A stretch of 54,994 bases of DNA from Methanosarcinales archaeon (lineage in GTDB: Bacteria; Omnitrophota; Gorgyraeia; Duberdicusellales; 4484-171). The notes under the pieces were generated by a model. That model was not told where the DNA came from. It ran no database searches and saw only the letters and a program-made list of their open reading frames with translations. Positions 35,882 through 54,647 of the stretch are shown here, one piece after another. The stretch lies in contig JAIWAR010000004.1 of the NCBI GenBank assembly GCA_048634245.1, forward strand, positions 1 to 54,994. The letters are read 5' to 3'. How positions within the stretch are numbered: position 1 is the first letter of the stretch; each line of letters opens with the position of its first letter. Both the position numbers and the translations under genes were made by a program.

Positions 35882-35919
35882 CGTTTTCCCTCCTTTTCTC
35901 TCCTCGAAGATACTTCCAT

Positions 35920-37973: not shown

Positions 37974-38828
37974 TTATTTCTCCTGCCCGGGATGTAAAAT
38001 TTCCGCCATTTGCTCTAAAGTGTCAGCAAAGCTTAAGGGAGTTGGGCTGCAAAGTTTATACGAATCAATGATATAAACTCTGTTATTTTTTACTGCTTTC
38101 AATGACTTAAATTTTTCCCAGGTTTCTTTCTCTTTTTCTCCTGCAATTCCCATAGTCACAATAATTATTATGCTCGGATCGGCTTCAATAACCTTTTCTC
38201 TGGAATAAAACCCGCTTTTTAGATTTTGAGCAATGTTTACACCGCCGGCAAATTCAATAAAATCATTGACAAAAGAATCTCCAATTACAGTAAATAATGG
38301 CCTTGCGCCTACCTGAATAAAAACCTTTGGTTTAGGCAGGCCTTTAACTTTTTTCTTTGTAATATTTATTTTGTCTTTTGCCTTAGAAATAATCTCTTCC
38401 GCTTTTTTTTCTTCACCGACAATTTCCCCTAACCTTAAAAACTGTTCACATATTTCAGCAAAACTCTTTGGCGGAGAAAAACTTACCACCTCTACCCCCA
38501 AATCTTTCAATTTCTTAACAGCCTTAAAATCGGTTAAAGCTGTTGCTAATACCAGATCGGGCTTAAATCCTATTATCTTCTCCAAACTAATTTCTACAAC
38601 TGTCCCCACTTTCTCTTTGCTCTTGGCCTCTTTCGGCCTCTTGCAATATATAGTGCAGCCTACTAATCTATCCTGAACGTTCAATAAATACAGCTGTTCA
38701 GTTATGGCTGGACCAAGAGAAATAATTCTTTGAGGTAAATTCTGATCAGTATGCCCGACAAAAGTACCTATATACAAAAAAATCAGAGCACAAACAATAA
38801 CTTTAATTCCAAGTAATAACTTCTTCAT
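37974..38828 (-). CDS. btuF: periplasmic substrate-binding protein (BtuF/FhuD class)
   Basis: Signal/anchor sequence. RIISLGPAITEQLYLL...LVGCT...KPDLVLA pattern. Confidence 0.82.
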   Translation of the reverse strand: MKKLLLGIKVIVCALIFLYIGTFVGHTDQNLPQRIISLGPAITEQLYLLNVQDRLVGCTIYCKRPKEAKSKEKVGTVVEISLEKIIGFKPDLVLATALTDFKAVKKLKDLGVEVVSFSPPKSFAEICEQFLRLGEIVGEEKKAEEIISKAKDKINITKKKVKGLPKPKVFIQVGARPLFTVIGDSFVNDFIEFAGGVNIAQNLKSGFYSREKVIEADPSIIIIVTMGIAGEKEKETWEKFKSLKAVKNNRVYIIDSYKLCSPTPLSFADTLEQMAEILHPGQEK

Positions 38829-39200: not shown

Positions 39201-39270
39201 GTGCACCCTGGTTTCTTGGCCCGTAAAACAAAAGTTCTAGGTTATTATTCCGCGTAAAACCTAAACTTGA

Positions 39271-39436
39271 TTTTTTCGGCAGGTCTTCTGACTTTCCCGC
39301 CTTTTAACAGTCTTCCCACCCTATCTCGGATAGTGACCTAAGCAACGTTAAAAAGGTTTCCCGACATTATGTCGGGACGGAATTACAGCACCGGGAGTGT
39401 TTCCGATTCACACGGAATTCCCTATTATGCCTTATC
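39271..39436 (-). promoter_or_regulatory. cobalamin (B12) riboswitch
   Basis: Minus-sense AAUAGGGAAuuccGUGUGAAUCGG...CCCGGUGCUGUAA...GGUCACUAUCC...GGGUGGGAAGAC...B12 box AGUCAGAAGACCUGCC (plus 39278-39293). Confidence 0.88.
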
Positions 39437-39460
39437 CTGTTAGAAAAATTTTTCTAACAG
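39437..39460. repeat. perfect 24-bp palindrome between promoter and riboswitch
   Basis: ctgttagaaaaa|tttttctaacag. Confidence 0.7.
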
Positions 39461-39509
39461 AATTTTACGGCACCGAAAACAATAATCCTAACTCCCAAAG
39501 AACGAATTT

Positions 39510-39589: not shown

Positions 39590-39609
39590 AGGAAGAGATA
39601 TCTCTTCCT
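39590..39609 (-). terminator. hairpin after pyrG (possible terminator)
   Basis: Perfect palindrome aggaagagat|atctcttcct, 6 nt after the pyrG stop. Weak U tract. Confidence 0.4.
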
Positions 39610-39615: not shown

Positions 39616-41217
39616 TCATTTAGCCTTTAAAGAATGCTTTATAAAATCGGCGAATAAGGGGTGGGCTTCATCGGGCTTGGATTTAAACTCCGGATGAAAT
39701 TGGCAGGCAATAAACCAAGGGTGATTAGTTAATTCTATTATCTCAACAAGGTTCTTAGCGGAATTAATCCCTGAAAAAATCATTCCCTTTTTCTCCATAG
39801 CTTCTCTATACACATTACTAAACTCATAACGATGCCGATGCCTCTCAGTAATTTTTCCTTTTCCATAAGTCGCCCGGGTTTTAGTTTCTTTCTTTATTTC
39901 GCATTCATAAGCACCTAAACGCATGGTCGCGCCTTTTGTAGTAATGTTTTTTTGTTCTTCAAGAAGGCTTATCACCGGATACTTTGTATTTTTATTAAAC
40001 TCAGTAGAGCTGGCATTTCTAAATCCGCAAACATTGCGGGCAAACTCAATCACCGCGGCCTGCATGCCTAAACATATCCCCAAAAAAGGTATATTTTGTT
40101 TTCTGGCAAATTGCACCGCTTTTATTTTTCCTTCGATGCCTCTATGTCCAAACCCGCCGGGAATAAGAATTCCTCCTACGCCTTTTAAATATTTGCCGGT
40201 TTCATTTTTCTCAATATCCTCAGAATCAACTCGCTTTAGTACCAACTTCGCGTTATTCGCAATCACCCCATGGATAAGTGCTTCATAAATTGACTTATAG
40301 GCATCTTGAAGAGTAATATATTTACCTATTACGGCAATTTCAACTTTCTTTGACGCATTTTTTATCTTTTTTACTACCCGCCTTTCCCAATTAGATAAAT
40401 CACCTTCACCGCATTTTAAATTAAGAAGGCGCGCGATTAAACGGCCCATAGCTTGCTTCTCTAAATTAATCGGTACTTCATAAATACTTTTTACATCAAC
40501 CGCCGAAATCACCGCGTCTCTGTGTACATTACAAAAAAGAGCGATTTTCTCCCGCGCTTCTTTAGGAAGTTTCTTTTCTGTTCTGCATATAATAATATCG
40601 GGAATGATTCCGATTCCACGCAGTGTTTGAACGCTATGCTGGGTAGGTTTTGTTTTTATCTCACCTGCCGATTTTATAAAAGGAACGAGAGTAACATGAA
40701 TATTAATCGCGTAATCTCTGCCTATATCAAGCCGAAATTGCCTAATTGCCTCAAGAAAAGGAAGGCTTTCAATATCACCGATAGTTCCGCCTATCTCAAT
40801 AATAATAACATCCACCTTTTGATTATCCTCGACCTTCTTGATACTATTTTTTATCTCATCGGTTATATGAGGAATAATCTGAACGGTCTTGCCTAGATAA
40901 TCACCTTTTCGTTCCTTAGAAATTACCGAGTAATAAATTTTTCCTGTGGTAATATTATTATCTTTAGTTAATTTAGCATTGGTAAACCGCTCATAATGCC
41001 CTAAATCTAAATCGGTTTCCGCGCCATCTTCGGTCACATATACCTCACCGTGCTGAAAAGGACTCATTGTCCCCGGATCGACATTTATATAAGGATCGCA
41101 TTTAATAATAGAAACTTTCAACCCTTTTGACTCTAGAATCTTACCAATGGAAGCAGAAGCGATTCCCTTGCCTAAGCTTGATACAACCCCGCCGGTTACA
41201 AAAATATATTTAGCCAC
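39616..41217 (-). CDS. pyrG: CTP synthase (glutamine hydrolysing)
   Basis: [19 protein letters not shown]-terminus. GATase active-site region GICLGMQ and the HRHRYE motif. Confidence 0.97.
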
Positions 41218-41237
41218 TGTTTACCTCCTTATGCTTC

Positions 41238-43064
41238 TCATTCCACAGTAACGCTTTTCGCAAGATTCCTCGGCTTATCTACGTCATGCCCTTTCAGAAC
41301 CGCCATATAATAGGCTAAAAGCTGTAAAGGTATAATTGTAAGTAAGGGGGAAAACATTTCCTCTATCTTAGGAATAAAAATGACTTCTTTAACATAATCT
41401 TTTATTTGCTTGTTTCCTAAGGTTGCTATAGCAATGACCTTGCCTCGCCGGGCTAATATCTCCTGGATATTGGACACCATTTTGTCAAAAATCAAGGAAT
41501 CATTAGCTATACATACCACCGCTCTGTATTCATCAATAAGAGCAATAGGCCCATGTTTCATTTCGCCGGCAGGATAACCCTCAGAGGGAATATAAGAAAT
41601 CTCTTTAAACTTTAATGCCCCTTCTAAGGCGGTAGGAAAATTAACGTTTCTACCTAAATAAAGAAAAGCGCCAAGATGAAGATGTTTTTTAGCAATCTCT
41701 TCTATGCCTCTTGCATTTTTAAGAATCTCCCCCTGCTTAGCAGGTATCTCTTTAAGAGAAGAAATAGCGTTATCTATATAGCTTTTGCTTAAAGTATTTT
41801 TTAAACCCGCTAAATACAGCCCTAAAAGATAAAGAACCATAACTTGAGCCGTATAAGCCTTGGTGGAAGCTACACTTATTTCCGGGCCGGCATGAGTATA
41901 GATAGTTGAGTCTGACTCTCTAGCCAAGGCTGAACCCAAAACATTACAGATAGAAAGAATTTTGACCTTATTTTTCTTCGCCTCTCTTACTGCCGCCAAA
42001 GTATCAGCCGTTTCACCCGACTGGCTAATCGCAATAACCAATGTCTTACCTCTTATGACCGGATTTCTGTATCTAAACTCACTGCCAAAATCTACCCAAA
42101 CAGGAATACGGGTAAATGACTCCATCACATACTTACCGATTAAACCGGCATGATAAGCTGTACCACAGGCAAGGATAACTAAATTTTCTACCCCCTTAAG
42201 AAAGTTGCCGGTTATATTAAGCTTTTCGAATAGAATGTTACCGGAAGGTGTTATATAACGAGAGATTATTCTAGAAAGAACCTGAGGTTGTTCGTAAATC
42301 TCTTTCAACATAAAGTGGCGGAATTTACCTTTTTGGACCGCTTCTATATCATACGAAATAGTCTCTGTTCTTTTATGAATCTTATTTCCCTTTACATCGA
42401 AAACATCGACCTTATCCTTAGTAATAACTGCTATTTCATTATCATCTAAATAGATAACATCTTTTGTGTAGTTCAAGATTGCTGAAACATCTGAAGCGAT
42501 AAAGTTTGCATCCTTACCTAAACCAATAGCTAACGAAGAATCACGTCTTAGCGCTACTATTTTTTCCGGTTCATCCGCGCTCACGACACCTAAAGCATAG
42601 GAGCCTTTTACTTTTTGCACCGCCTTTTTTACAGCCTCCTGCAGGTTTCCTTTATAGAACTTATCCACCAGATGGGCAATTACCTCTGTATCAGTTTCAG
42701 ATTTAAACTTACAGCCTTGATTTTCTAAATCTTTCTTTAACTCATTAAAATTTTCTATTATTCCGTTATGAACAACACCGATTTTCCTTTTCGCGTCTAC
42801 ATGGGGATGGGCATTTATTCCTGAAGGTTTTCCGTGAGTCGCCCACCGAGTATGTCCTAACCCTATCCGGCCAATTAACTTTTTCTTTCTAAGAGCCATC
42901 TCTAAAACGCTAATTCGTCCTTTACGCTTAGCAATGGATAGCCTATCTTTATTTACTACAACTATACCCGCGGAATCATACCCCCGGTATTCAAGCTTCT
43001 TTAACCCTTCCACGATGATTGTCGCAGCTTCCTTACCGCCCGCGTAACCGATTATTCCGCACAT
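41238..43064 (-). CDS. glmS: glutamine--fructose-6-phosphate aminotransferase
   Basis: MCGIIGY N-terminal nucleophile, two SIS domains, C-terminal ..LAKSVTVE. Confidence 0.97.
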   Translation of the reverse strand: MCGIIGYAGGKEAATIIVEGLKKLEYRGYDSAGIVVVNKDRLSIAKRKGRISVLEMALRKKKLIGRIGLGHTRWATHGKPSGINAHPHVDAKRKIGVVHNGIIENFNELKKDLENQGCKFKSETDTEVIAHLVDKFYKGNLQEAVKKAVQKVKGSYALGVVSADEPEKIVALRRDSSLAIGLGKDANFIASDVSAILNYTKDVIYLDDNEIAVITKDKVDVFDVKGNKIHKRTETISYDIEAVQKGKFRHFMLKEIYEQPQVLSRIISRYITPSGNILFEKLNITGNFLKGVENLVILACGTAYHAGLIGKYVMESFTRIPVWVDFGSEFRYRNPVIRGKTLVIAISQSGETADTLAAVREAKKNKVKILSICNVLGSALARESDSTIYTHAGPEISVASTKAYTAQVMVLYLLGLYLAGLKNTLSKSYIDNAISSLKEIPAKQGEILKNARGIEEIAKKHLHLGAFLYLGRNVNFPTALEGALKFKEISYIPSEGYPAGEMKHGPIALIDEYRAVVCIANDSLIFDKMVSNIQEILARRGKVIAIATLGNKQIKDYVKEVIFIPKIEEMFSPLLTIIPLQLLAYYMAVLKGHDVDKPRNLAKSVTVE

Positions 43065-43077
43065 AATACCTCTCTTG

Positions 43078-44454
43078 CTATGCTCGTTCTAATATTTTTT
43101 TTGATGCTCTATTTGATATAACTGTAGGGTATTTACCCGTAAAACAAGCGGTACAAAATTCCCGCTCAGGAAGCAGCATTGCCTTAAGCATACCCTTCAG
43201 GCTCAGATACATTAAACTATCTACTCCGATAAAATCTTTAATCCAATCTATGCTATGATTAGAAGCAATCAGCTCCCCCTTAGTAGGAAAGTCTATTCCG
43301 TAGAAACAGGGAAATTTAATCGGTGGACAGCTTATCCCCATATGCACTTCTTTAGCACCTGCCTGCCTAATGGTTTTTACACGTACTCTGCTGGTAGTAC
43401 CGCGAACAATAGAGTCGTCGATAATAATAACTTTCTTGCCTTCTAAAACATCTTTTATGGTATTCAGCTTAATTCTCACGCGAAGATTTCTCACAAATTG
43501 TGAGGGTTGAATAAAGGTTCTGCCCACGTAATGATTACGTATCATTCCCATTTCAAAAGGAAGGCCGGCTTTTTGAGCAAACCCAATTGATGCATACATT
43601 CCTGAATCCGGAACCGGCATACACAAATCACATTTTTTCAAGCGGCATTCACTGGCTAGATATTCACCTAAGCGTTTACGAGTAAAATAAACGCTCTTGC
43701 CAAAAATATTTGAATCCGGCCGAGCAAAATAGATAAGCTCAAAAATACATAGAGAATGTTTCTTTTCAGGAAAAGGTTTTATTGACTCAATACCCTTTTT
43801 GCTGATAAACACAATTTCTCCCGGTTCAATATCACGTATATATTGAGCCTGAATCAGATCCAAAGCACAAGTCTCACTAGCTAAAACGTAGGCATCACCT
43901 AATTTGCCAAGGCAAAGAGGCCTAAACCCATGAGGATCCCTTGCGCCAATTAATATATCATTTACCATCAATACTAATGAATAGGCACCTTCTAATCGCG
44001 AAAGCGCCCAGATAATACTTTTATGCGGGTCTTTATTCGGAGAACAAGTAATAAGATGAGCAACTATTTCGGAATCCATTGTGGTTTGAAAAATTGATCC
44101 TTTCTTTTCCATTCCATCACGCAGCCCAAGAACATTAGTAAGGTTACCATTATGAGCTATAACGATATGCTCTTTTCTGTGGTTAACAACAAAGGGTTGA
44201 ATATTCTTTGCAGTACTTGACCCGGTGGTTGAATAGCGAGTGTGGCCTACAGCAATGTTACCTTTCAACGACTTTATTGATCTTTCATCAAATACGTCGC
44301 AAACAAGCCCCATTCCTTTGTGAGAATTTAATTTTTTGCCGCCGCTGGCAACTATTCCCGCACTTTCCTCTCCCCGATGCTGAAGAGCATAAAGCCCTAA
44401 ATAAGCTAATCTGCCCGCTTCCTTATGTCCGTACATGCCAAGTATTCCACACAT
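43078..44454 (-). CDS. purF: amidophosphoribosyltransferase
   Basis: MCGILGMYG Ntn nucleophile. PRTase motif VIIIDDSIVRGTT. C-terminal Cys ligands. Confidence 0.96.
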   Translation of the reverse strand: MCGILGMYGHKEAGRLAYLGLYALQHRGEESAGIVASGGKKLNSHKGMGLVCDVFDERSIKSLKGNIAVGHTRYSTTGSSTAKNIQPFVVNHRKEHIVIAHNGNLTNVLGLRDGMEKKGSIFQTTMDSEIVAHLITCSPNKDPHKSIIWALSRLEGAYSLVLMVNDILIGARDPHGFRPLCLGKLGDAYVLASETCALDLIQAQYIRDIEPGEIVFISKKGIESIKPFPEKKHSLCIFELIYFARPDSNIFGKSVYFTRKRLGEYLASECRLKKCDLCMPVPDSGMYASIGFAQKAGLPFEMGMIRNHYVGRTFIQPSQFVRNLRVRIKLNTIKDVLEGKKVIIIDDSIVRGTTSRVRVKTIRQAGAKEVHMGISCPPIKFPCFYGIDFPTKGELIASNHSIDWIKDFIGVDSLMYLSLKGMLKAMLLPEREFCTACFTGKYPTVISNRASKKILERA

Positions 44455-44457
44455 ATT

Positions 44458-46683
44458 TTATTTTACAATCCTTTTCTCTAATACCTGAGCCCATTCCCGA
44501 TATAATCTTCCCAGAGGTAACCTGATTAATTCGTTCTGCCCCTTAAAAATTACCAGGTTTTTACCACCTGTCCTGCCAATAACTTGAATTGGCGCTTTAT
44601 TTTTTTTCGCGATATCCCTGACCTTACCTACATACTCTCTACCGCAGGAAAGAATAATTCTTGACTGGGACTCGCCAAAAAGAATAGCGTCCTTTCTGCC
44701 GGTAAAATCTAAATTATCAATAACCGCCCCCAACATATTTTCTTTGTTGGAAATACAACACTCTGCCAGAGCCACTGCCAGGCCTCCTTCAGAACAATCG
44801 TGTGCCGAGCTGACTAATCCTTTTTTTATCGCTTTTAGTGCTGTTTGCCCAACTGCCTTTTCTAAACGCAAATCTAACTCCGGCGGCTCTCCCTTTATTA
44901 ATTTATGCACTTCTTTTAAATATTCGCTGCCGCCTAATTCTTCTTTACCGAGCCCCAAAAGAATAATTATCTCATTTTCTTTCTTAAAATTCTGCGTGCA
45001 AACTCTTTTTATGTCATCTATGATTCCTATCATTCCGATAGTTGGCGTAGGATGAATCGCGCTTTTTTGACTTTCGTTATAAAAAGAAACATTGCCGCTA
45101 ACTACAGGTATATTAAAAAACTTACAAGCATGGACAATCCCTTCCACGCAATTTTTAAACTGCCAGAACCTATCAGGCTTTTCGGGGTTTCCGAAATTAA
45201 GACAATCTGTAACTGCCGCCGGTTCAGCGCCGGAACAAATGAGGTTTCTTGCCGCTTCTGCTATCGCAATCTGCGCTCCTCGGTAAGGATTTAAAAAACA
45301 ATAGCGGCTGTTGCAATCGGTAGTAGCCGCGATAGCCTTGTCTGTACCTTTTAATCTTATCACCGCGGCATCAGAACCGGGCAAAACTACCGTATTAGTC
45401 TGGACCATATGGTCATACTGTTCATAAACCCATTGCTTACTACAAATAGAGGGTGAACTCAAAAGCTTAAGTAAAACTTTATTGAAATCCTTTGGCAGTG
45501 TTATCTTCTTGATACTTAATTTATTCATTTTATGCAAGTAATTTGGTTTTTTGTACGGCATATCATAAACAGGGCCATCGGTCAATAAAGACGCTTTTAT
45601 TTCAGCCACAATTTTGCCATTATCATTAATACGTACTATACCCTCGTCAATAACTCTGCCTATTGCAACGGCTTTAACGCCCCATTTCGAAAAAATATCC
45701 TCAATGTCTTTTTCCTTACCCTTTTTAACACAAAGAAGCATTCTCTCCTGGGACTCTGACATCATCACTTCCCATGCCTCCATGCCTTTTTCTTTTCTCG
45801 GAACGTATTGAAGTTCTACCTCTACTCCTAAACCACCCGCGGATGCCATTTCACTTGTACAGCAAGTAAGGCCCGCCGCGCCCATATCTTTAAGGCCCAC
45901 TACATACCCTGTGGCTAACGCCTCCAAGGTTGCTTCTATAAGACACTTTTCGGCAAAAGGATCTCCTACCTGGACAGTGGGCCTTTTCTCTTCGTTCTCT
46001 TTTAGTTCCTTTGAAGCTAGAACACTACAACCTCCTATGCCATCCCGCCCCGTACTGCCTCCCGCATACATTATAATATTACCAACTCCTATAGCCTGAG
46101 CCTTCACCACTTTGCTTTTCTCCACAATTCCTATACTCATAGCGTTTACCAGACAATTACCGTTATAACTTTCGTCAAAATATATCTCTCCGCCAATTGT
46201 CGGTACTCCTAGACAATTACCGTAAAATTGAATACCATCTACTACACTCTTTAAAAGATATCTGTTGTATGCCTTTGATAATTGGCCAAAACGTAAAGAG
46301 TTTAATGATGCTATCGGCCGCGCTCCTGCTGTAAATATGTCCCTGATTATTCCTCCTACACCTGTAGCAGCACCTTGCCTAGGCTCAACCTGTGATGGAT
46401 GGTTGTGGCTTTCCATCTTAAAGACGATAACGAAATCATCAAGGATAAAACCTCCCGAATCTTCACCGATACGGCTTTGATATTTCCCTTTTTTAGGCAA
46501 AAGTTTAAGCCAATTACGAGAGCGTGGATATCCACAATGTTCCGACCACTCCACAGAAAACATTGCCAATTCCGTAGATGTTGGTTCCCGCTGTAAAACA
46601 TCCAAAATCCTCCGATATTCTTCGTCCTTTAAACCCAAACTTCTATAGACTTCAGGTTTTGCCATATTACCGCCTATTTGCAA
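44458..46683 (-). CDS. purL: phosphoribosylformylglycinamidine synthase subunit PurL
   Basis: Conserved SEHCGY, ESHNHPS and DCLNFGNPE motifs. An alternative ATG at 46665 would remove the overlap with purQ. Confidence 0.95.
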
Positions 46684-47365
46684 GCCACTTGACTATTGAT
46701 CTAAAGATTAAAAGGCCATCTTCAGAACCTAATTCTGCCTCAGAACTTCTCTCCGGATGAGGCATCATGCCTAAAACGTTTCCCCCTTTATTTACGATGC
46801 CCGCGATATTTGCCAACGCACCGTTGGGATTAGACTTTTCATTGATAGCCCCATCTTGATCACAGTAGTAAAAAACAATCTGCCTGTTTTTCTCTAAATT
46901 TTTTAGTCCATTCTTATCAATATAATAGTTACCTTCATTATGGGCTATTGGTATTCTTAAAATTTGATTTCTATTACAAAGATTTGTAAAAGGTGTTTCA
47001 CTGTTTCCAATTTTTACATACACATATTTACAGATAAAATGAAGATTTTTATTTCTTAACATTGCTCCGGGCAAAAGCCCTGATTCAAGCAGGATTTGAA
47101 AGCCATTGCAAATTCCAATTACCAGCCCCCCCTTCTGAGCAAAGTCAGAAACTTGCTTCATTATTGACGAAAATCTAGCTATTGCGCCTGTCCTGAGATA
47201 GTCTCCGTAGCTAAAACCTCCCGGCAATATAATACAATCAAAGCCATCCAATTTTGTATCTTTGTGCCAGATATATTTAACCGGTTGGTTGAGAACATTC
47301 TTAATTACATAAAAACAATCCCAGTCACAGTTAGAACCTGGAAAAACTACAACGCCAAATCTCAT
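46667..47365 (-). CDS. purQ: phosphoribosylformylglycinamidine synthase subunit PurQ (glutaminase)
   Basis: FPGSNCD, GICNGFQ catalytic Cys, MMPHPER. Confidence 0.95.
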
Positions 47366-47613
47366 TTTATTTTTTCTACTCTGAAACTATAGTTTTCTAT
47401 TATCGGGTTAGCTAACAACTTCCGGCACATTTGATCAACCCTCTGTTTGATTTTTTCCTTGTCCCCGGAGTTTATTTTAATAATAATTAATTTACCGACA
47501 CGAACCTCTTCTAAGCCTGAATAGCTTAATGATTCTAAAGCATGCTTGATAGTCAAACCCTGAGGATCGGATACAGTTCTTTTTGGAGTAATATAAATTT
47601 TTACTTCAAACAT
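47362..47613 (-). CDS. purS: phosphoribosylformylglycinamidine synthase subunit PurS
   Basis: 83 aa. V..K..V.DPQG....AL pattern. 4-nt overlap with purQ. Confidence 0.9.
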
Positions 47614-47653
47614 TTTTTCTCCACAACAACACCTCCTTTAATGAATCAAAAAC

Positions 47654-50600
47654 TCATACCATTCGTTCCGTAAGCCTGGATTTCATCTGATATTCTTGAA
47701 TCGATCTTACAGTAAGGCCTCGCTTCATAACAGATTCTATTCCATTAATAGCCGCCTGGGCTCCCTGAAGCGTAGTTATGCAAGGTATACCCTGCATAAC
47801 TGCTAAGCTCCTTATTGATTTCATATCAGACTGTCCCTTTGAACCCGATGGTGTATTAATAATGAGCTTTATCCGGCCTGTTCTTATAAATTCTAAAATT
47901 CTAGTATCACCTTCGCTAATCTTACCAATCATCTCTGTTTCAACATTGTTAGAATGAAGAACTTTTCTTGTTCCTTTTGTGGCCATAATTTCAAAACCCA
48001 TATCTGAAAGTTTCTTTGCAGCAAACACTAAATTCCTTTTATCGCTATTCTTGACACTTATAAAAATCTTTCCGTTTAAAGGAAGTTTTTGGCCGGCAGC
48101 AACTTGAGATTTATAAAACGCCCTTCCAAAAGAATCATCTATACCCATCACTTCCCCTGTTGATTTCATTTCCGGGCCAAGGAGTACGTCAACTCCGGAA
48201 AATCTTGAGAATGGCAGGACAGACTCTTTTATTGCAATATGGCTTATCTTCGGTTCTTCAACAAAACCCAATTCAGAAAGTTTCTTGCCCGCCATTACCT
48301 GAGCGGCAAGCTTGGCTAAAGCGATACCAATAACTTTACTCACGAAGGGTACTGTTCGGGAAGCCCGTGGATTGACTTCTAGCACATACACAGTATTATT
48401 CTTTACGGCAAACTGTATATTAAGAAGGCCTTTTACTTCTAATTCTTTTGACATGGCAAAAGTATATTTTCTTATGGTGTTAATAATATCATCACTTAGG
48501 GTATGCGGAGGCATAACGCAGGCTGAATCTCCGGAATGTACGCCGGCTTCTTCTATATGCTCCATGATGCCGCCTATTACCGTGAGGTTACCATCTGAAA
48601 CAGCATCAACATCAACCTCTACAGCATCTTCCAAAAATTTATCGATTAAAATCGGACGATCCTCAGATGTATCTCTCGCTTCTTTCATAAATTCATCAAG
48701 AGATGTATCATCGTAAACAATTTTCATTGCTCTACCGCCCAAGACATAGGAAGGCCTGACTAAAACAGGATACCCAATTCTTTCCGCTATTTGCTTCGCT
48801 TCCTTTTTCGAAGTAGCAGAGCCGTTATCCGGCTGATTAATGTTTAATTTCCTTATAAGTTTTGCAAATTTACCCCTATCTTCCGCTCTATCGATAGATT
48901 TTACTGAAGTTCCAATAATTGGAACTCCTGCCTGCTCAAGACGCCTTGCTAAATTAAGAGGAGTCTGGCCTCCGAATTGCACAATTACTCCGTCAGGATT
49001 TTCTTTATCAACAACATTCATTACATCTTCAAAGGTAAGCGGCTCAAAATAAAGCTTATCGGATGTGTCATAATCCGTTGATACGGTTTCAGGATTTGAA
49101 TTGACCATGATTACCTCAAATCCTAACTCTTTAAGAGCAAAAGAAGCATGGCAACAGCAATAATCAAATTCTATGCCCTGGCCGATCCTGTTGGGGCCGC
49201 CGCCTAATATCATTATCTTTTTCTTTTTGGAAACTTTTGATTCATCTTCAGTCTCATAGGTCGAATAATAATAGGGTGTGTAGGCTTCAAACTCTGCCGC
49301 ACAAGTATCTACCAATTTAAACGTTGCTTCAACTCCCCTTTCTTTTCTAAAATTTCTCACTGATAATTCATCAGAATCAATTAAATCAGCTATTTGCCTA
49401 TCACTAAACCCATATTGCTTCACTCTCTTCAGCAAATCTAAATCTATATTCAAATCTTTATTACTTGTGACCTGTGACCTGCCTGTGCCCGCTTGTGCCC
49501 GCAAGGGTATAAGGGTATGACTTGTGACTTGAATTTGCTGTTCCAATTCCACAATCTGCTTTATATTATCAATAAACCAGGGGTCTATACCGGTAAGCTG
49601 GCTAATATCCTCAACCGTATATCCTTTCTGAACGGCATATTTAATATAAAATATCCGGGAAGCATTGGGCTTTTGTAGCCGCAGCTTGATTTTTTCATCA
49701 GATATATGACGGTAATCCAATTTATTATCCAGGCCACTGTGTCCAATTTCCAATCCACGTAAACCTTTCTGCAAGGCCTCCCTAAAAGTTCTTCCTATTG
49801 CCATTGTCTCGCCTACTGACTTCATGGAAATTCCTAAAATATCTTCGGCCTCAGGAAATTTCTCAAAAGTAAACCGGGGAATCTTGACTACACAATAATC
49901 TATTGTTGGTTCAAAAGAAGCGGGTGTTTCTTTTGTGATATCATTTCGTATTTCATCAAGGGTATAACCCACAGCTAATTTTGCCGCAAACTTAGCAATT
50001 GGAAAACCGGTCGCTTTAGAAGCTAAAGCTGATGAACGTGAAACCCTTGGATTCATTTCGATTACTACCATACGGCCATTTTCCGGATTCACTGCAAACT
50101 GAATATTTGAACCGCCGGTTTCAACTCCTACTTCCCGGATTATTGCCAGAGCAGCATCCCGCATTTTCTGATATTCTTTATCTGTTAAAGTCTGGGCAGG
50201 TGCTACGGTTATAGAATCTCCGGTATGAATACCCATGGGATCAAAATTTTCCATTGAGCAAACTACGACTACATTATCCCTATAGTCTCGCATAACTTCG
50301 AGTTCGTATTCTTTCCAGCCAAAAATTGATTCTTCAATTAGGATTTCATTAATCATACTATTCTTTAAACCCAAATCTACTATTTTTTCAAACTCCTCTT
50401 GGGTAGTTGCAATTCCTCCACCGGTTCCGCCAAGAGTAAAACTTGGCCTTATAATTACCGGTAAGCCAATTCTCTCAAGGACCTCTCGAGCCTCTTCGAT
50501 AGAGTATGCGATCCTACTCTTAGGTAAATCCAGTCCGATTTGCCTCATTGCATTTTTAAAATACTGGCGGTCTTCTGCTTTTTTTATGGCATCATAATTT

Positions 50601-50953
50601 GCGCCTATCATCTGTACGTTATAAGCATCAAGAACACCACGTTCAACAAGCTTAACTGCGGTATTTAAACCGGTTTGGCCTCCCAATGTAGGAAGCAAAG
50701 CGTCGGGGCGTTCTTTAATGATAATTCTTTCCAGAATTTCGGGGGTAATAGGCTCGATATAAGTGGCATCGGCAATTTCAGGATCGGTCATTATAGTAGC
50801 TGGATTAGAATTAACCAGAACTACCTTAAATCCTTCCTCTCTTAAGGCTTTACAGGCCTGAGTACCGGAATAATCAAACTCACAAGCCTGGCCTATTACG
50901 ATCGGGCCTGAACCAATAATTAGAATTTTATGTATATCCGTTCGTTTAGGCAT
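47654..50953 (-). CDS. carB: carbamoyl-phosphate synthase large subunit
   Basis: [29 protein letters not shown] start. Duplicated ATP-grasp halves. MGS-like C-terminus. Confidence 0.97.
49463..49528 (-). repeat. 57-nt in-frame GC-rich micro-repeat insertion in carB bounded by a 9-bp direct repeat
   Basis: acttgtgac at 49463-49471 and again at 49520-49528. The interior is built of tgtgacc x2, tgtgccc x2 and aagggtat x2. It encodes ..[23 protein letters not shown].. Confidence 0.7.
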
Positions 50954-50969
50954 AGTTCGGCCCTGCTCG

Positions 50970-52064
50970 CTACAAGCAATTCTTCTCCATCATTTCAACA
51001 AATTCCTTAAATAGATATCGCGCATCGTGAGAACCCGGAGAGGCCTCAGGGTGAAATTGCACTGAGGATACAGGGAAGTTTTTATGTCTCATCCCCTCTA
51101 AGGTATTATCGTTGAGATTAATATGTGTAATTTCAATATCTTCTTTATTCAACGAATCTGTATCCACACAGAATCCATGATTTTGCACGGTTATATAAAC
51201 CTTACCTGATTTTAGATCTTTAACCGGTTGGTTTCCGCCATGATGGCCAAATTTAAGTTTGAAAGTTTTCCCACCCAAGGCCAATCCCAACATCTGATGC
51301 CCCAAACAAATGCCAAAAATCGGTAATTTTCCAATTAATTTTTTAACCATTTCAACTACATAGAACACTCCTTGAGGGTCCCCCGGGCCGTTAGAAAGCA
51401 ACACGCCATCAGGTTTCATCTTTAGAATTTCCTCTGAAGTAGTTTTCGCCGGAACAACAATCACCTGGCAAGAACATCCGGCTAACTCTCTTAAAATATT
51501 AAATTTAACGCCGCAGTCAATAACTACAACTTTGTATTTGCCTTCCCCATTCCAATTTTGAATTCTACCAGATGTAACTTCTTTCACTAAATCTCTACCA
51601 ATCAAACCGGGAGAAGCCTTCGCCTTTTCAATTAAACTTGTCTCATCTAAATCTTCAGTGGAAATAACAGTTTTCATTGTTCCCTGCAGTCTAATATGGC
51701 GGGTAAGCGCGCGTGTATCTATACCTGCTATTCCCAAAATATCATTCTCTTTAAGATAAGTGTCGAGGCTTTTCTGTGAACGCCAGTTGCTGGCAATACG
51801 GCTGTATTCCTTAACCACAAACCCCTCTACAAATAACCTTTTTGATTCCACATCTTCTGAATTTATGCCATAGTTGCCAATAAGAGGGTAGGTCATAGCA
51901 ACAATTTGGCCTTTGTAGGAAGGGTCGGTGAGAATTTCTTGATAACCGGTCATACTGGTATTGAAAACCGTTTCACCGAACCTGGTTCCGTTTGCACCGA
52001 AAGAATATCCTTCAAAAATTGTCCCGTCTTCTAAAGCTATTTTTGCTATCTTTTCACTTTCCAT
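50970..52064 (-). CDS. carA: carbamoyl-phosphate synthase small (glutaminase) subunit
   Basis: [28 protein letters not shown] and QFHPE motifs. I chose the ATG at 52064 by N-terminal alignment. The longest ORF starts at 52097. Confidence 0.93.
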
Positions 52065-53646
52065 CAAGAATTGCTTCAGCTTCTTTGCGATAAGCATCCA
52101 TCACATAAGGAATTCCGGAAACTTTTGCCGCTTCTTCAGTCAAAGTCATAATATCCTTTCTGGAAATTGTGTTTACCCTGAAATTTCTACTTCCAGCCAT
52201 TAACTGCTGCAAACCAACCTTAATTTTCTGCGAAAAAGTATAGATACCAACGGCTCCCAAAGGAATATCCTTTATATCCTTACCATACTTTTCCTTAAGT
52301 TCGGCATATGTAACATAAATTTCTTCAGGGGATTGACCAAATTCCGAAATGGTCTTGGGAAGGTCCTTTGATTCGATCCACCCATGCATATTTTTGCCAA
52401 CCATACCCGGTATCATTAAGGCTCTACCCATACATACAGCTTTTACATAAGGGGCACCCATAGCAAGCACTTTAAAAATATGGTCTTCTGATGAAAATCC
52501 GCCAGCTATAGCTATGTCGGGTACGCGCATTCCCATTTTAGCCAGTTTTTCACAAAACTCATAGGCTAAAGATTGTAAGTAAAAGGTGGGAATGCCCCAT
52601 TCCTCCATCATTCTCCAGGGGCTCATTCCCGTCCCCCCGGGGGCACCATCAATAGTAAGAAGATCTATTTTTGCTAACGAGGAATATTTGATAGCCATAG
52701 CTAATTCTCTCATAGAATAAGCGCCGGTTTTTAAAGTTATACGCTTAAAACCAAGATCTCTTAAACGCTTAACTTCGGCTAAAAATGATTCCTCAGAAAC
52801 AAACCCCAACCGGGAATGTCTCTCAAATTCTTTAATAGCACCATCCTTAAAGGCCTTCTGGTTAGCAGAAATAGACGGATCAGGGGTTACGATATAACCG
52901 CGTTTTTGCAACTCAAGCGCTCTCTCTAAATTCTTAACCTTAATTTCTCCCCCAATACACTTTGCTCCCTGGCCCCATTTTAATTCTATAGTATCTAAGT
53001 TGTGCTTTTTTCTTACATATTCAGCCACTCCTAAGCGAGTATCCTCGACATTCATCTGCACAAGAATCTCACCGTAGCCCTCGTGGAATCTTTTATAAAC
53101 CTCTATACGGTGGTCCATGTCGGGCGCTTTTGTAACCTTACCTTCAGAGTCACACTCAAGTTTAGGATCTATACCGCAAACGTTCTCACCGCAGACAAGA
53201 GTTACACCGGAAATAGCTGCCCCAATAGCAAAATGCTCCCAATTTTTACGAGCGATTTCTGTTGAACCTAATGCCCCGGTAAAAATCGGAACTCTCATTT
53301 TGTGTTTTATATCCCAGCCATATTCGGTCTCTGTACTAACATCGGGAAACTTTGTTGTATCAGGACTTCCCTCGACCCCTTCTGGCAAACCTTTCGCGCC
53401 TAAAGCATACCCTTGAATATTTAAATGCGAATAATCTACAGGATAATCCTTATCCCCACCGGCAGTTACATCTCCAAACGGACCAGGATAAATTACCTCA
53501 CGGCCCCGGAATGAAGCTTTAAACACCTCGCAATTACCTCTGCACCCATCAACGCAGCGTGAACACAATCCCGACCCCGGCACCACACTCTTAGAACGAT
53601 TAAACGTTCTGGTTGCATCATTTCCATTTGGCCTTTGTAAATTCAT
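52054..53646 (-). CDS. FMN-binding glutamate synthase family protein (GltB domain 2-like) with N-terminal Cys cluster
   Basis: CSRCVDGCRGNCEV cluster. LKWGQGAK, IDGAPGGTG and AGGFSSEDHIFKVLAMGA motifs of the Glu_synthase FMN domain. Confidence 0.85.
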   Translation of the reverse strand: MNLQRPNGNDATRTFNRSKSVVPGSGLCSRCVDGCRGNCEVFKASFRGREVIYPGPFGDVTAGGDKDYPVDYSHLNIQGYALGAKGLPEGVEGSPDTTKFPDVSTETEYGWDIKHKMRVPIFTGALGSTEIARKNWEHFAIGAAISGVTLVCGENVCGIDPKLECDSEGKVTKAPDMDHRIEVYKRFHEGYGEILVQMNVEDTRLGVAEYVRKKHNLDTIELKWGQGAKCIGGEIKVKNLERALELQKRGYIVTPDPSISANQKAFKDGAIKEFERHSRLGFVSEESFLAEVKRLRDLGFKRITLKTGAYSMRELAMAIKYSSLAKIDLLTIDGAPGGTGMSPWRMMEEWGIPTFYLQSLAYEFCEKLAKMGMRVPDIAIAGGFSSEDHIFKVLAMGAPYVKAVCMGRALMIPGMVGKNMHGWIESKDLPKTISEFGQSPEEIYVTYAELKEKYGKDIKDIPLGAVGIYTFSQKIKVGLQQLMAGSRNFRVNTISRKDIMTLTEEAAKVSGIPYVMDAYRKEAEAILDGK

Positions 53647-53693
53647 AACATTATCCTCCTTTTATATTTTGTTTTACGCCTATATCCTCCAGG

Positions 53694-54398
53694 CTATTTT
53701 AATTTCTTCATTTCGGATGTAAGAATTATCGCCTCGGCAACTTCGCGCATAGTTTTGCGGCGATCCATACTAAACCTCTGAAGCCTAAAATAAGCTTTCT
53801 CTTCTGTTAAACCTTCTTCTCTCATCAAAATTCCTTTAGCTCGTTCAATTCTTTTCCGGTTTTCCAGCTCTTCTTTAATCACCTTACTTTTTACTATCAA
53901 TTCCGTATTTTCAATAGCTACAGCTGCCTGATTAGCTATAGATGTTAAAATGTCTATTTCTGTTCCTGTAAAGTTATGAGTAGAGGCGGTGTAACAGTTA
54001 AGCACACCGATAACCTTTCCTTTAACCGCTAAGGGAACACACAAAAGGGAACAAAGCCCTTCTTTCTTGGCAATACCCCCGTATTTATATTCCTTTTCTT
54101 TAGTAACATCTTTAACGGTTATAGGTTTATTTTCTTTTGCGACTTTGCCCGCGATGCCCTCTCCTATTTTTAAAGGTGGTTTCTTGTTATACTCTTCACT
54201 AACGCTTTGTGTTGCCCGAATAACAAGTTTATTGCCCTTCTCATCAATAAGCAGCAAAGAGCATATATTAGAACCCATAACCTGTGCAGTTACTACCACT
54301 ATAAGACGAAGAATATCCTCTAAATATAGATCAGAAGCAATAGCTTTACTTATCTTCGATAAAGCTTTGATTTGTTCTTCGTAAGGTATGCTATTCAC
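53694..54398 (-). CDS. GAF + ANTAR domain RNA-binding antiterminator
   Basis: GAF core (SNICSLLLIDEKGNKLVIRA...GVLNCY). ANTAR helix pattern (RKRIERAKGILMREEGLTEEKAYFRLQRFSMDRRKTMREVAEAI). I prefer the GTG at 54398, 5 nt after AAGAGG. The longest ORF starts at the TTG at 54422. Confidence 0.85.
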   Translation of the reverse strand: MNSIPYEEQIKALSKISKAIASDLYLEDILRLIVVVTAQVMGSNICSLLLIDEKGNKLVIRATQSVSEEYNKKPPLKIGEGIAGKVAKENKPITVKDVTKEKEYKYGGIAKKEGLCSLLCVPLAVKGKVIGVLNCYTASTHNFTGTEIDILTSIANQAAVAIENTELIVKSKVIKEELENRKRIERAKGILMREEGLTEEKAYFRLQRFSMDRRKTMREVAEAIILTSEMKKLK

Positions 54399-54471
54399 GA
54401 TAGCCTCTTGGTATAATCTCAATAAAATTATACCTGGTTAAACATTCTATCCTTTATAGAATATCTTTAAA

Positions 54472-54522
54472 ATAAAAAAAAAGACGTTCCCTTCCTCTTA
54501 CCCTATGAGACATGAGAACATC
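54472..54522 (-). terminator. strong intrinsic terminator upstream of the GAF-ANTAR gene
   Basis: Minus-sense GAUGUUCUC..UCUC-loop-GAGG..GGGAACGUC followed by U9. Confidence 0.7.
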
Positions 54523-54552
54523 TTTGTTCTTTTTTAACACTAACCTTGTGCT
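54516..54552 (-). promoter_or_regulatory. ANTAR-type tandem hairpins, the second overlapping the terminator 5' arm
   Basis: Minus-sense AGCAC[AAGGUUA]GUGUU, A6 linker, (A)GAAC[AAAGAU]GUUC(U). Both loops have A at position 1 and G at position 4. GUUC is shared with the terminator stem. Confidence 0.4.
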
Positions 54553-54647
54553 TTTTTATTTATACCATACACCATCTAATAAGTAAAGTAAAAAACTTTC
54601 TTAGTAGTGTCAACGCATATACCTTCTTTTTGTAAAACTTTTAATAC

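Follow-up and report, generated by a model that had tools for sequence, protein, structure and literature searches.

The window analyzed here comprises 54,994 nt of contig JAIWAR010000004.1, and all coordinates refer to it. Ten open reading frames run along the minus strand from 54398 to 39616. The first (53694..54398, 234 aa, GTG start) codes for a GAF-ANTAR one-component regulator, and the second (52054..53646, 530 aa) codes for a YerD-like protein of the "FMN-binding glutamate synthase family" that we label GltSl (GltS-like). We identified these two genes with Pfam and the eight downstream enzymes with NCBIfam equivalog models, all of which scored above cut-off. carA (50970..52064; TIGR01368, 525.5 bits against a cut-off of 307) and carB (47654..50953; NF003671, 1721.6 against 599) code for the glutaminase and large subunits of carbamoyl-phosphate synthase. 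Three FGAM synthase genes follow: purS (47362..47613; NF004630, 103.4 against 75), purQ for the glutaminase subunit (46667..47365; NF002957, 328 against 212), and purL for the synthetase subunit (44458..46665; NF002290, 975.2 against 648). The remaining genes are purF, coding for glutamine PRPP amidotransferase (43078..44454; TIGR01134, 520.6 against 350), glmS, coding for glutamine-fructose-6-phosphate aminotransferase (41238..43064; TIGR01135, 813.4 against 418), and pyrG, which codes for a glutamine-hydrolysing CTP synthase and ends the unit (39616..41217; NF003792, 845.7 against 308). The original prediction, made from the sequence alone, had proposed this order and these identities, and the profile scores bear it out. 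It had also placed the regulator start at the GTG at 54398, where we likewise find an upstream SD (AAGAGG, 54409-54404). carA most likely starts at the ATG at 52064 rather than at the ORF start at 52097, and purL most likely starts at the ATG at 46665, 1 nt past the purQ stop.

The genes are packed like a single transcription unit, as had been claimed. The junctions measure, in gene order, 47, -11, 16, 40, -4, 1, 3, 13, and 20 nt; the longest separate the ANTAR gene from GltSl and carB from purS, and the overlaps are those of carA with the GltSl stop and purQ with purS. Folding all operon junctions gave no hairpin followed by a U-run. Neither terminator-like matches (18 versus 14.7 ± 3.7 in shuffles) nor promoter-like matches (38 versus 44.3 ± 5.2) were enriched in the region. 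The 47-nt and 40-nt gaps could be sites of transcription starts, and internal promoters may lie within the 38% GC operon DNA. The glmS leader is only 13 nt long and an Rfam search returned no glmS ribozyme (RF00234), in agreement with the original prediction. No other Rfam cis-regulator was found inside the operon, and the sole Rfam match in the window was a cobalamin riboswitch just 3' of pyrG. A palindromic 9-bp hairpin on the minus strand (39590..39609), 6 nt past the pyrG stop, probably marks where the unit ends. It has no U-run on that strand, which leaves the position of this end tentative. Beyond it lie a new promoter (39537-39510) and the cobalamin riboswitch.

The product of the first gene matched the Pfam families GAF_2 (88.1 bits) and ANTAR (72.2 bits against a cut-off of 27.3), and it is 80-98% identical across Omnitrophota. 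The best NCBIfam matches of its GAF domain were PtsP (EI-Ntr) and NifA. In the PDB, this domain matched PtsP domains (3trc and 3ci6) and Nlh1/2, along with the GAF domains of cGMP phosphodiesterases, and the ANTAR portion matched domains of Rv1626, NasR, and AmiR. GltSl gave a partial match to Glu_synthase (PF01645, 54.6 vs. 20.4, profile positions 185-309 of 369). It has an N-terminal CxxCxxxCxxxC motif with invariant cysteines and contains neither an amidotransferase domain nor a GXGXG domain. Over 235 aa it is 29% identical to the FMN subunit of a split archaeal-type GOGAT, and the alignment includes the K-GQGAK-GG and DG-GGTG motifs. Homologs that are 74-90% identical occur in both bacteria and archaea.

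The original prediction had pointed to the ANTAR regulator at the head of the operon, and we found that an ANTAR-type attenuator, not seen at that stage, is located there as well. In the leader (54587-54474, minus strand), a promoter precedes a pair of small hairpins whose loops have A1 and G4, and the second of these hairpins shares sequence with a terminator, which is the arrangement of ANTAR antitermination. The promoter-like element (54559..54587) consists of a -35 sequence TTTACT (54587-54582), a 17-nt spacer, and an extended -10 sequence TGgTATAAA (54567-54559). Eight relatives (L001, L002, L003, L007, L009, L011, L013, and L020) have TTGACA or TTTACA at this position, followed after 16-17 nt by TATAAT-like hexamers, and the promoter-region block TTTTTTACTTTA is invariant in an alignment of the window with L122 and L123. 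In the predicted fold, hairpin P1 (54536..54552) pairs AGCAC with GUGUU around the 7-nt loop AAGGUUA, and hairpin P2 (54515..54530), the antiterminator arm, pairs AGAAC with GUUCU around the hexaloop AAAGAU; both loops have A1 and G4. The intrinsic terminator (54474..54523) is formed by a 5' arm, AGAUGUUCUC (54523-54514), that shares bases with the loop and 3' arm of P2, and by a 3' arm, GGGAACGUCU (54491-54482), that is followed by nine U (54482-54474). The calculated energy of the terminator is -16.1 kcal/mol, versus -4.6 for P2 alone, and forcing P1 and P2 in the folding abolished the terminator stem. Two further predicted hairpins (54462-54444 and 54434-54410) lie downstream, the second of which abuts the SD; neither matched our covariance model of the motif (R1). 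At the corresponding position, L001, L007, L009, L011, and L013 have a second hairpin-plus-terminator unit.

We examined the conservation of this motif in relatives. A strict regular expression returned 13 instances in 1.67 Mb of retrieved DNA. All 13 were in Omnitrophota loci, on the gene strand, and followed by a terminator that overlaps P2. In the motif alignment, 92% of cells were paired, versus 34-51% when the partners were slid. Helix 1 was 98.5% paired, with two of its five pairs changing on both sides (GC to AU compensatory changes in P1). The A1 and G4 positions of the P1 loop (A7 and G10 of the alignment) are invariant in the 13 sequences; in the P2 loop, all of them have G4 and 12 of the 13 have A1. 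The P1 loop has 7 nt in most instances, versus the canonical hexaloop. R1 gave a single significant match in the window (54514-54553, 48.3 bits, E about 1e-9) and no match inside the operon. In 609 kb of DNA (31 Omnitrophota-type and 9 other loci) it gave 33 matches, all on the plus strand and 29 of them intergenic; 32 were in Omnitrophota-type loci. The matches sit 9-340 nt upstream of ANTAR, GltSl, gltB, amtB, glnA, gdh, nfnA-like, nuoE-like, and pyrG genes. Three strong matches came from loci outside the seed (L122-L124), and many of the weaker ones are individually non-significant (E 0.01-0.5). Overall, R1 gave 36 sites in Omnitrophota relatives, all on the coding strand. A search of 655 kb of non-Omnitrophota loci that contain GltSl and no ANTAR gene returned only one match (E = 0.81). 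The pyrG leaders of L022 and L011 have the complete set of promoter, P1, P2, and terminator, with an entirely different P1 stem (GUAGU/ACUAC) and canonical hexaloops (AAGGUU and AAAGUA).

The same or permuted gene runs recur in independent assemblies from different samples, including L122, L004, and L123-L126, and the grouping is not peculiar to this assembly. An assembly chimera or chance juxtaposition would fit a metagenome-type source and a GltSl protein whose exact sequence has no record elsewhere, but the shared flanks (such as a ubiB-like gene common to the window and L122) and shared order in those assemblies make this explanation negligible. The relatives show at least eight different amidotransferase gene orders and have recruited the additional amidotransferase genes guaA, hisHF, asnB, and nadE. 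Their runs often lie directly behind amtB-glnB-glnA-GOGAT, and the non-amidotransferase steps of these pathways never occur within them. The proposal that the genes are grouped by glutamine use and not by pathway thus holds in many Omnitrophota. Since relatives keep rebuilding this grouping, the genes appear to be organized by shared nitrogen donor across the synthesis of purines, pyrimidines, arginine, and cell-wall sugars. What is conserved at the core is the GAF-ANTAR and GltSl pair, which is found without an amidotransferase tail in L001, L007, L009, L013, and L020. Because the attenuator accompanies the pair alone in several relatives, the switch evolved for the pair. Amidotransferase runs also exist without GltSl (L083, L085, and L086), and those of L083 and L085 are located behind gltBD without an R1 match.

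We consider it likely, with a probability of about 0.7, that all ten genes are transcribed together and that ANTAR-type antitermination in the 5' leader gates this unit. RNA polymerase would initiate at the sigma-70-like promoter, roughly 10 nt before P1, and by default the strong terminator (nine U) would form and stop it before the first gene. With its GAF domain in the active ligand state, a dimeric ANTAR protein would use the A1/G4 loops of P1 and P2 to clamp both hairpins, withholding the bases of the terminator 5' arm and allowing read-through. We infer that transcription would then continue to pyrG, reaching the regulator gene itself (positive feedback), GltSl, and five glutamine-dependent enzymes. 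Our best guess is that the GAF domain reads nitrogen status as 2-oxoglutarate and/or glutamine; the ligand is a guess because our literature search found no characterized GAF-ANTAR protein. The proximity of this domain to the nitrogen-sensing GAF domains of PtsP and NifA/Nlh counts for a nitrogen switch. The operon would belong to a phylum-wide nitrogen regulon, with the same RNA switch before amtB-glnB, glnA, GOGAT, gdh, and stand-alone pyrG in relatives. If the switch opens together with the ammonium-assimilation genes, the capacities to make glutamine and to spend its amide nitrogen would rise and fall together. The original prediction of a single glutamine-nitrogen regulon is supported, as all of its checkable elements proved right and the newly seen ANTAR attenuator agrees with it, but the regulon is not dedicated to amidotransferases, as the motif also precedes amtB, glnA, gltB, gdh, and nfnAB-like genes. 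The regulon is one of general nitrogen assimilation to which amidotransferases have been appended, and the window operon is a conserved, nitrogen-linked, substrate-organized supraoperon under a putative one-component riboregulator.

The attenuator might instead govern only the GAF-ANTAR and GltSl genes, leaving the eight amidotransferase genes as housekeeping genes with internal promoters and an inherited order that has no regulatory meaning. The occurrence of the pair by itself fits this explanation, as do the two long gaps, and total shut-off of essential enzymes by a terminator seems risky. Two of the blocks, carA-carB and purS-purQ-purL-purF (ordered as in the pur operon of Bacillus), are ancestral, so that about four joining events would suffice. 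Against it, the 11-nt overlap of GltSl and carA and junctions of -4 to +20 nt elsewhere leave little room for promoters, and promoter-like matches are not enriched. Where pyrG lies apart from the run (L011 and L022), it has its own complete attenuator, and the variety of amidotransferase orders beside nitrogen genes indicates selection rather than inheritance. We regard control of the pair alone as unlikely.

Somewhat less probable still is a genuine switch whose GAF domain responds not to nitrogen status but, for example, to a cyclic nucleotide, the redox state, or the energy charge, making the operon a module for growth or anabolism in general. The ligands of GAF domains are diverse, and none is known for GAF-ANTAR proteins (PMC3369931); one report describes binding of c-di-GMP by the ANTAR protein NasT (PMC10783516). 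The operon's products are nucleotides and cell-wall precursors, and cGMP phosphodiesterases are among the PDB matches. PtsP and NifA/Nlh outrank these cyclic-nucleotide GAF domains, however, and the other motif targets (amtB, glnB, glnA, GOGAT, and gdh) are those of a classic nitrogen-status regulon.

Clustering could also have arisen at the protein level, through co-translation for assembly or co-localization (for example, to recycle the glutamate released by all amidotransferases) or through joint travel as a transferable module in small genomes. All of these enzymes share the glutamine-to-glutamate half-reaction, which is established biochemistry, and the extremely conserved GltSl is a constant neighbor that overlaps carA. 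Outside Omnitrophota, though, GltSl has no amidotransferase neighbors except hisF/hisH in some loci, and the runs that lack GltSl also speak against such coupling. The operon does not differ from the remainder of the window in GC content, which also counts against them. We find these protein-level explanations improbable and prefer nitrogen-linked antitermination of the whole operon.

We compared this operon to known ANTAR systems. Nitrogen regulons of this type were already predicted in 2012 by Ramesh et al. in Desulfotomaculum acetoxidans, D. reducens, and Pelobacter carbinolicus (PMC3369931). Their model has dual hairpins with A1/G4 and a P2 that overlaps the terminator, with mostly nitrogen genes as targets and several motif copies per genome before P-II, ammonium transporter, and glutamine/glutamate synthase genes (PMC3369931). 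The Omnitrophota leader shares the dual small hairpins and the overlap of P2 with an intrinsic terminator, but its P1 loop is mostly 7 nt and its regulator is a one-component GAF-ANTAR protein encoded inside its own target operon. Purine, pyrimidine, and amino-sugar amidotransferases were not reported in the earlier regulons. New relative to these are the amidotransferase payload, the GAF sensor, and the occurrence in Omnitrophota. In the nasF leader of Klebsiella oxytoca (NasR) and the eut leaders of Enterococcus faecalis (EutV), the protein stabilizes two hairpins and blocks the terminator, as we propose here. NasR, too, fuses a sensor to an ANTAR domain in a one-component protein, and both the NasR structure 4akk and the response-regulator chain 6wsh align with the ANTAR domain encoded in the window. 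The sensor domain differs (GAF versus NIT or REC), and so do the targets, which are anabolic amidotransferases here versus nitrate assimilation for NasR and ethanolamine catabolism for EutV. In the GnfK/GnfR cascade of Geobacter sulfurreducens, an ANTAR regulator reportedly controls nitrogen-assimilation genes by antitermination. GnfR is said to be a two-component response regulator under NtrC-type control, without an amidotransferase operon, in contrast to the one-component regulator of the window.

In model bacteria, each of these genes is found among those of its pathway and is controlled through its own end product. The pur genes are controlled by PurR/PurBox or a purine riboswitch, pyr genes, carAB, and pyrG by PyrR or UTP/CTP-sensitive attenuation, and glmS by its ribozyme or GlmY/Z. 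The window encodes the same enzymes but groups them by co-substrate behind one switch, and the Rfam scan found none of the model-bacterial RNA elements in the operon. The nitrogen regulon of Euryarchaeota is controlled by NrpR, a DNA-binding repressor. In loci from Dehalococcoidia, Nitrospirota, and methanogens, a GltSl ortholog (74-78% identical) adjoins an NrpR-like gene, glnA, gdh, and P-II. These loci resemble the window in placing GltSl beside nitrogen genes, but they have no ANTAR motif and no amidotransferase tail. With an NrpR-like neighbor there and an ANTAR neighbor in Omnitrophota, GltSl is therefore nitrogen-regulated in two unrelated ways.

Ten consecutive open reading frames (ORFs) occupy the minus strand from position 54398 to position 39616. 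Pfam and NCBIfam searches assigned them, in order, to a GAF-ANTAR regulator, a YerD-like protein of the 'FMN-binding glutamate synthase family' (GltSl), CarA, CarB, PurS, PurQ, PurL, PurF, GlmS, and PyrG. The eight enzymes (CarAB, PurLQS, PurF, GlmS, and PyrG) far exceed NCBIfam equivalog cut-offs and are full length, including the glutaminase domain; class I GATase, class II GATase, and GATase_5 domains were detected among them. The regulator starts at a GTG codon (54398) that is preceded by the Shine-Dalgarno sequence AAGAGG. By our reading of the sequence, carA most likely starts at ATG 52064, giving an 11-nt overlap with the stop of the preceding gene, and purL most likely starts at ATG 46665, 1 nt past the purQ stop. 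The nine junctions measure 47, -11, 16, 40, -4, 1, 3, 13, and 20 nt in operon order. Folding revealed no hairpin with a U-run in any of them, and matches to terminator-like and promoter-like consensus sequences were not commoner over the operon region than in shuffled sequence. The glmS start follows the purF stop after only 13 nt, and the glmS ribozyme family (RF00234) had no match at the gathering threshold in the whole window. The original prediction of ten tightly packed genes, with these identities, this regulator start, and no glmS ribozyme, was borne out in full.

We also examined the flanks of the operon. An Rfam scan of the whole window found no purine, ZTP, or glutamine riboswitch and no PyrR site; the sole match was a cobalamin riboswitch (39261-39492, minus strand, 86.9 bits), which has its own near-consensus promoter (TTGACA-16-TAAAAT, 39537-39510). 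This riboswitch and promoter, together with a 9-bp hairpin located 6 nt past the pyrG stop, mark the probable 3' boundary of the operon. Directly 3' of pyrG on the same strand is a B12-uptake unit (34007-38828) coding for a periplasmic binding protein, a FecCD permease, an ABC ATPase, and a TonB-dependent receptor. The upstream neighbor is a ubiB/ABC1-type gene that is 87% identical to its counterpart in L122, a relative's locus whose regulator is 94% identical to the one in the window. Recent horizontal transfer of the operon block was considered and set aside; the composition profile showed no GC discontinuity. The remaining genes in the window are unrelated housekeeping genes, with no further nitrogen gene found among them.

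The regulator combines two recognizable domains. Its C-terminus carries an ANTAR domain (PF03861) that scored 72.2 bits against a gathering score of 27.3, covers profile positions 4-54 of 54, and aligns to the ANTAR domains of Rv1626, NasR, and AmiR. The N-terminal signal-input domain is a GAF_2 domain (residues 34-171, 88.1 bits) that most resembles the GAF domains of PtsP (EI-Ntr) and NifA/Nlh. The PtsP and NifA/Nlh domains have been reported to sense glutamine and 2-oxoglutarate, and this likeness provides a lead toward the same ligands for the regulator. The closest homologs of the regulator (80-98% identity) come nearly all from Candidatus Omnitrophota metagenome-assembled genomes. GAF-ANTAR is a widespread architecture for which we know of no characterized member, and a search of the available literature found none. 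Three of the loci fetched from relatives (L007, L011, and L013) contain a second GAF-ANTAR paralog, with 53-58% identity, upstream of the main regulator.

The 250-nt interval separating ubiB from the regulator folds far better than shuffled sequences (z = -4.4). Reading along the minus strand, a promoter-like site (TTTACT, 17 nt, TGgTATAAA; 54587-54559) precedes hairpin P1 (54552-54536, loop AAGGUUA), an A-rich linker, and hairpin P2 (54530-54515, hexaloop AAAGAU). A 10-12 bp terminator follows, with nine U at 54482-54474. Its 5' arm (54523-54514) is drawn from the loop and 3' arm of P2, so that bases 54523-54515 are shared by the two structures. The folding energy of the terminator is -16.1 kcal/mol, versus -4.6 kcal/mol for P2 alone, and the terminator stem was abolished when P1 and P2 were forced to form. 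The predicted default state of the leader is termination. We rejected the idea that this terminator merely marks the end of the upstream ubiB-like gene because a conserved promoter lies between them and because the motif follows another upstream gene in L123-L126. Two extra hairpins (54410-54462, minus strand) lie between the terminator and the start codon, and the second (GGUAUAAUUU...AUUAUACC) abuts the Shine-Dalgarno site. At this location L001, L007, L009, L011, and L013 have a second hairpin-plus-terminator unit. The proposal that the window hairpins make up another attenuator, as in L001, L007, and L009, was unsupported, as they lack a U-run and an R1 match (see below).

For NasR, experiments have established ANTAR control of nitrogen genes, and Geobacter GnfR reportedly exerts such control too. 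A bioinformatic study from 2012 predicted ANTAR nitrogen regulons with sites before P-II, amtB, glnA, and glutamate synthase genes (PMC3369931). The target described there consists of two small hairpins with A at loop position 1 and G at loop position 4, the second hairpin overlapping an intrinsic terminator, and the window leader matches it in its tandem hairpins, its A1 and G4 loop bases, and its P2-terminator overlap. In loop size its fit to that dual-hexaloop model is partial: both loops are hexanucleotides in the model, and P2 agrees with this, whereas the Omnitrophota P1 loop is mostly 7 nt.

Other Omnitrophota have the promoter-P1-P2-terminator unit upstream of their orthologous regulators as well. 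When 1.67 Mb of fetched DNA was scanned with a strict regular expression, 13 instances emerged; each lies in an Omnitrophota locus, shares the strand of its gene, and has a stem plus T-run behind it. In the alignment of these instances, 92.3% of the cells in the two helices are paired, a share that falls to 34-51% if the partners are offset by one to three columns, and the two outer P1 pairs alternate between G-C and A-U, a compensatory change at both pairs. The P1 loop bases A7 and G10 (loop positions 1 and 4) are invariant; P2 likewise has an invariant G, and its A is conserved in 12 of 13. All 13 sequences have 7 unpaired nucleotides in the P1 loop, and the P2 loop is a hexaloop in every instance. 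An Rfam scan of the leader alone at E ≤ 10 returned noise and no ANTAR-type family, so we built our own covariance model, R1, from the alignment of 13 strict instances. R1 found exactly one significant site in the window, the leader itself (48 bits), and had no match inside the operon.

We surveyed 40 loci (31 Omnitrophota-type and 9 other) with R1 at a cut-off of E ≤ 1. The model returned 33 sites, 32 of which are in Omnitrophota-type loci. Every site is on the coding strand, 29 are intergenic, and they stand 9-340 nt upstream of genes. The downstream genes are ANTAR-GltSl, GltSl alone, gltB, amtB, glnA, gdh, an nfnAB-like pair, a nuoEF-like-GltSl operon, and pyrG. Three loci that were fetched later and are outside the model seed (L122-L124) each have a strong match before the regulator. 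A further set of 47 non-Omnitrophota loci (655 kb) that contain GltSl and no ANTAR gene gave a single match, at E = 0.81. Weak matches before pyrG in L022 and L011 proved to be complete units when we read the sequence: each has a TTGACA/TAAAAT promoter, a wholly different P1 stem (GUAGU/ACUAC) with a C-G-closed hexaloop (AAGGUU and AAAGUA), a P2 with AAAGGC, and an overlapping terminator. The distribution of R1 sites shows that the RNA element co-occurs with the regulator and, with the complete pyrG leaders, indicates that it defines a nitrogen regulon and targets an amidotransferase gene directly even where that gene stands alone. In three loci (L005 4896-8864, L011 861-4518, and L013 1218-5088), an nfnAB-like pair, comprising a 280-aa protein and a GltD-like protein, and then a glutamate dehydrogenase gene lie behind an R1-type motif.

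We compared gene order across the relatives. The regulator and GltSl genes form a core that is always kept, and they occur as a pair only in L001, L009, and L020. The grouping of glutamine enzymes originally noted in the window recurs in many other Omnitrophota loci, which append amidotransferase genes in at least eight distinct orders. Writing "switch" for the R1-type attenuator, these include gltB-gltD-switch-79aa-ANTAR-HTH_8-GltSl-carA-carB-purF-glmS-pyrG (L004), ubiB-ANTAR-HTH_8-GltSl-carA-carB (L122), amtB-glnB-glnA-(GATase)-nadE-split GOGAT-79aa-ANTAR-HTH_8-GltSl-carA-carB-guaA-purS-purQ-purL (L123, L124, and L125), and ...ANTAR-GltSl-carA-carB-purS-purQ-purL-hisH-hisF-purF (L126). Others are ANTAR-gdh-GltSl-carB'-guaA-purL-hisH-hisF-purF (L024), gltBD-switch-nuoE/F-like-GltSl-carA-carB-carB'-guaA (L016), gltBD-x-carA-carB-purF-pyrG (L083), gltBD-asnB-purF-pyrG-carA-carB (L085), GltSl-pyrG (L002, L003, and L022), and gltBD-switch-pyrG (L011). 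The runs draw on carAB, purLQS, purF, guaA, pyrG, glmS, hisHF, asnB, nadE, and GOGAT genes. Steps of purine, pyrimidine, histidine, or amino-sugar synthesis that do not involve an amidotransferase are missing from all of them, and the interlopers are few (mnmG, a PPDK_N-domain protein, and DUF1846).

Part of this grouping is inherited. The purSQLF and carAB genes are ancestral blocks, and the window therefore needs about four joining events rather than eight. Chance or mere inheritance nonetheless appears inadequate as an explanation, because the genes have been repeatedly reshuffled and further amidotransferases recruited. Where purF is more distant (47-57% identity), the surrounding loci have either an isolated purF or the usual purSQL-purF arrangement. 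Among the loci sampled, only Omnitrophota-type contigs show the pattern.

Several smaller features vary among the relatives. A 79-80-aa ORF without a family match is kept between the attenuator and the regulator, and a Fis-type HTH_8 protein of about 100 aa is encoded between the regulator and the GltSl gene (ORFs of these two kinds are at 3511-3750 and 4527-4841 in L004, 7763-8086 in L122, and 9707-9946 and 10718-11026 in L123, and also in L125 and L126). L013 has a comparable HTH_8 ORF ahead of gltB. Neither ORF is found in the window, where only the 47-nt gap separates the regulator and GltSl genes. Five loci (L012, L025, L085, L118, and L126) have only the N-terminal half of carB (553-578 aa) after carA, and three (L016, L019, and L024) have a second full-length carB-like gene with 51-52% identity and no adjoining carA. 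A DUF1846 (PRK13663) gene adjoins pyrG or purF in two loci (L012 5228-6751 and L086 5796-7322).

GltSl (52054-53646, minus strand, 530 aa) is encoded by the second gene of the operon. Its exact sequence is not on record by exact-sequence look-up, and its closest homologs (83-97% identity) come nearly all from Candidatus Omnitrophota metagenome-assembled genomes. It scored above threshold for PF01645, but the match covers only profile positions 185-309 of 369, and NCBIfam had no family match. GltSl is 29% identical to the FMN subunit of split GOGAT over 235 residues, including the K-GQGAK-GG and DG-GGTG motifs, and BLASTP against full-length GltB aligned a single 81-residue patch. An invariant CxxCxxxCxxxC motif is found at the N-terminus. 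The Ntn glutamine amidotransferase and GXGXG domains are absent from GltSl and from the neighboring genes in the window. Because GltSl coexists with genuine, separate gltB or split GOGAT genes in relatives, it should not be classed as a glutamate synthase. Structure was of little help: a PDB sequence search returned nothing at E ≤ 0.01, AlphaFold2, given a shallow alignment (23 sequences, 82-97% identity), produced a model with a mean pLDDT of 52, and Foldseek with this poor model retrieved only generic TIM barrels (TM about 0.3). The model suggests at most a beta/alpha barrel-like pattern.

GltSl extends across bacteria and archaea, with 74-90% identity from Omnitrophota to Dehalococcoidia, Nitrospirota, and methanogens. 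The window protein is 74-78% identical to proteins from Dehalococcoidia, Nitrospirota, Thermodesulfobacteriota, Methanoperedens, Methanothrix, and Bathyarchaeia (L027-L082), and a tandem paralog occurs in L034, L065, and L070. Outside Omnitrophota, GltSl adjoins NrpR-like regulators (20 loci), glnA, gdh, and P-II genes, and in 8 loci a NuoE/NuoF/2Fe-2S-like trio. These neighbors were named by sequence reading and BLAST, some with confirmation by profile search. Two unrelated regulatory systems, ANTAR and NrpR, thus seem to place GltSl under nitrogen control.

We propose that transcription from the leader promoter would stop at the U-run unless a ligand-activated GAF-ANTAR dimer binds P1 and P2. 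Read-through would yield one full-length message for the regulator, providing positive feedback, and for GltSl and five glutamine-dependent enzymes. We put the probability of this ANTAR-gated single-operon model at roughly 0.7. The same switch precedes amtB, glnA, GOGAT, and gdh genes in relatives, and switching of the operon together with ammonium assimilation would be the simplest interpretation. The trigger is more likely to be nitrogen limitation (high 2-oxoglutarate and low glutamine) than the opposite polarity, and such a trigger would keep biosynthetic amidotransferase flux up while glutamine is scarce. The original prediction of one glutamine-nitrogen regulon finds support in the sequence analysis, with its emphasis shifted to a general nitrogen regulon with an amidotransferase tail.

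A more sweeping interpretation, which we regard as doubtful, is that Omnitrophota central metabolism has been reorganized around glutamine amide nitrogen. Up to ten glutamine-dependent systems (carAB, purLQS, purF, guaA, pyrG, glmS, hisHF, asnB, nadE, and GOGAT) may have been pulled from their pathway operons and fused to ammonium-assimilation genes in an ANTAR-gated supraoperon. A one-component GAF-ANTAR riboregulator may sense glutamine or 2-oxoglutarate directly, and a single RNA switch may set both glutamine supply and all glutamine spending. The ultra-conserved YerD-like FMN/Fe-S protein would then be a hitherto uncharacterized nitrogen-assimilation enzyme with a functional link to the amidotransferases, perhaps a glutamate synthase that accepts ammonia or amide and has no glutaminase of its own.

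Operons normally follow pathways, and elsewhere each amidotransferase for nucleotides, arginine, or amino sugars is controlled by its own end product. What is new under the single-operon model is the amidotransferase payload (nucleotide, arginine, and amino-sugar), the recurrent substrate-based gene organization, the GAF one-component regulator that sits in, and would feed back on, its own operon, the P1 loop variant of 7 nt, and the phylum. Our literature searches returned nothing relevant on an amidotransferase operon, Omnitrophota nitrogen regulation, YerD, or NrpR with Dehalococcoides. A conserved co-substrate operon, reassembled repeatedly in different orders, would be a rare, clear-cut example of selection for economy in the use of a nitrogen donor. 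It would also tie nucleotide and cell-wall precursor synthesis to a nitrogen-status regulon in a poorly known, uncultivated phylum. The analysis supplies, for the first time, concrete and testable targets and an RNA site for a GAF-ANTAR regulator and draws attention to a YerD-like protein that is highly conserved between bacteria and archaea.

Other features of the window lie outside the operon. An EF-G-like ORF of 1051 aa (26625-29780, minus strand) has EF-G domains that begin only at residue 358, and its N-terminal extension of about 355 residues had no Pfam match at E ≤ 1e-8. A STAS-PilZ fusion protein is encoded at 31693-32409 (minus strand), with a GGDEF-domain protein nearby (25410-26606). 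Genes lie on the plus strand from 1 to 19.8 kb and on the minus strand from 20.9 to 55 kb, converging at about 19.8-21 kb, where the GC skew changes sign; this point may be a replication-related strand switch.
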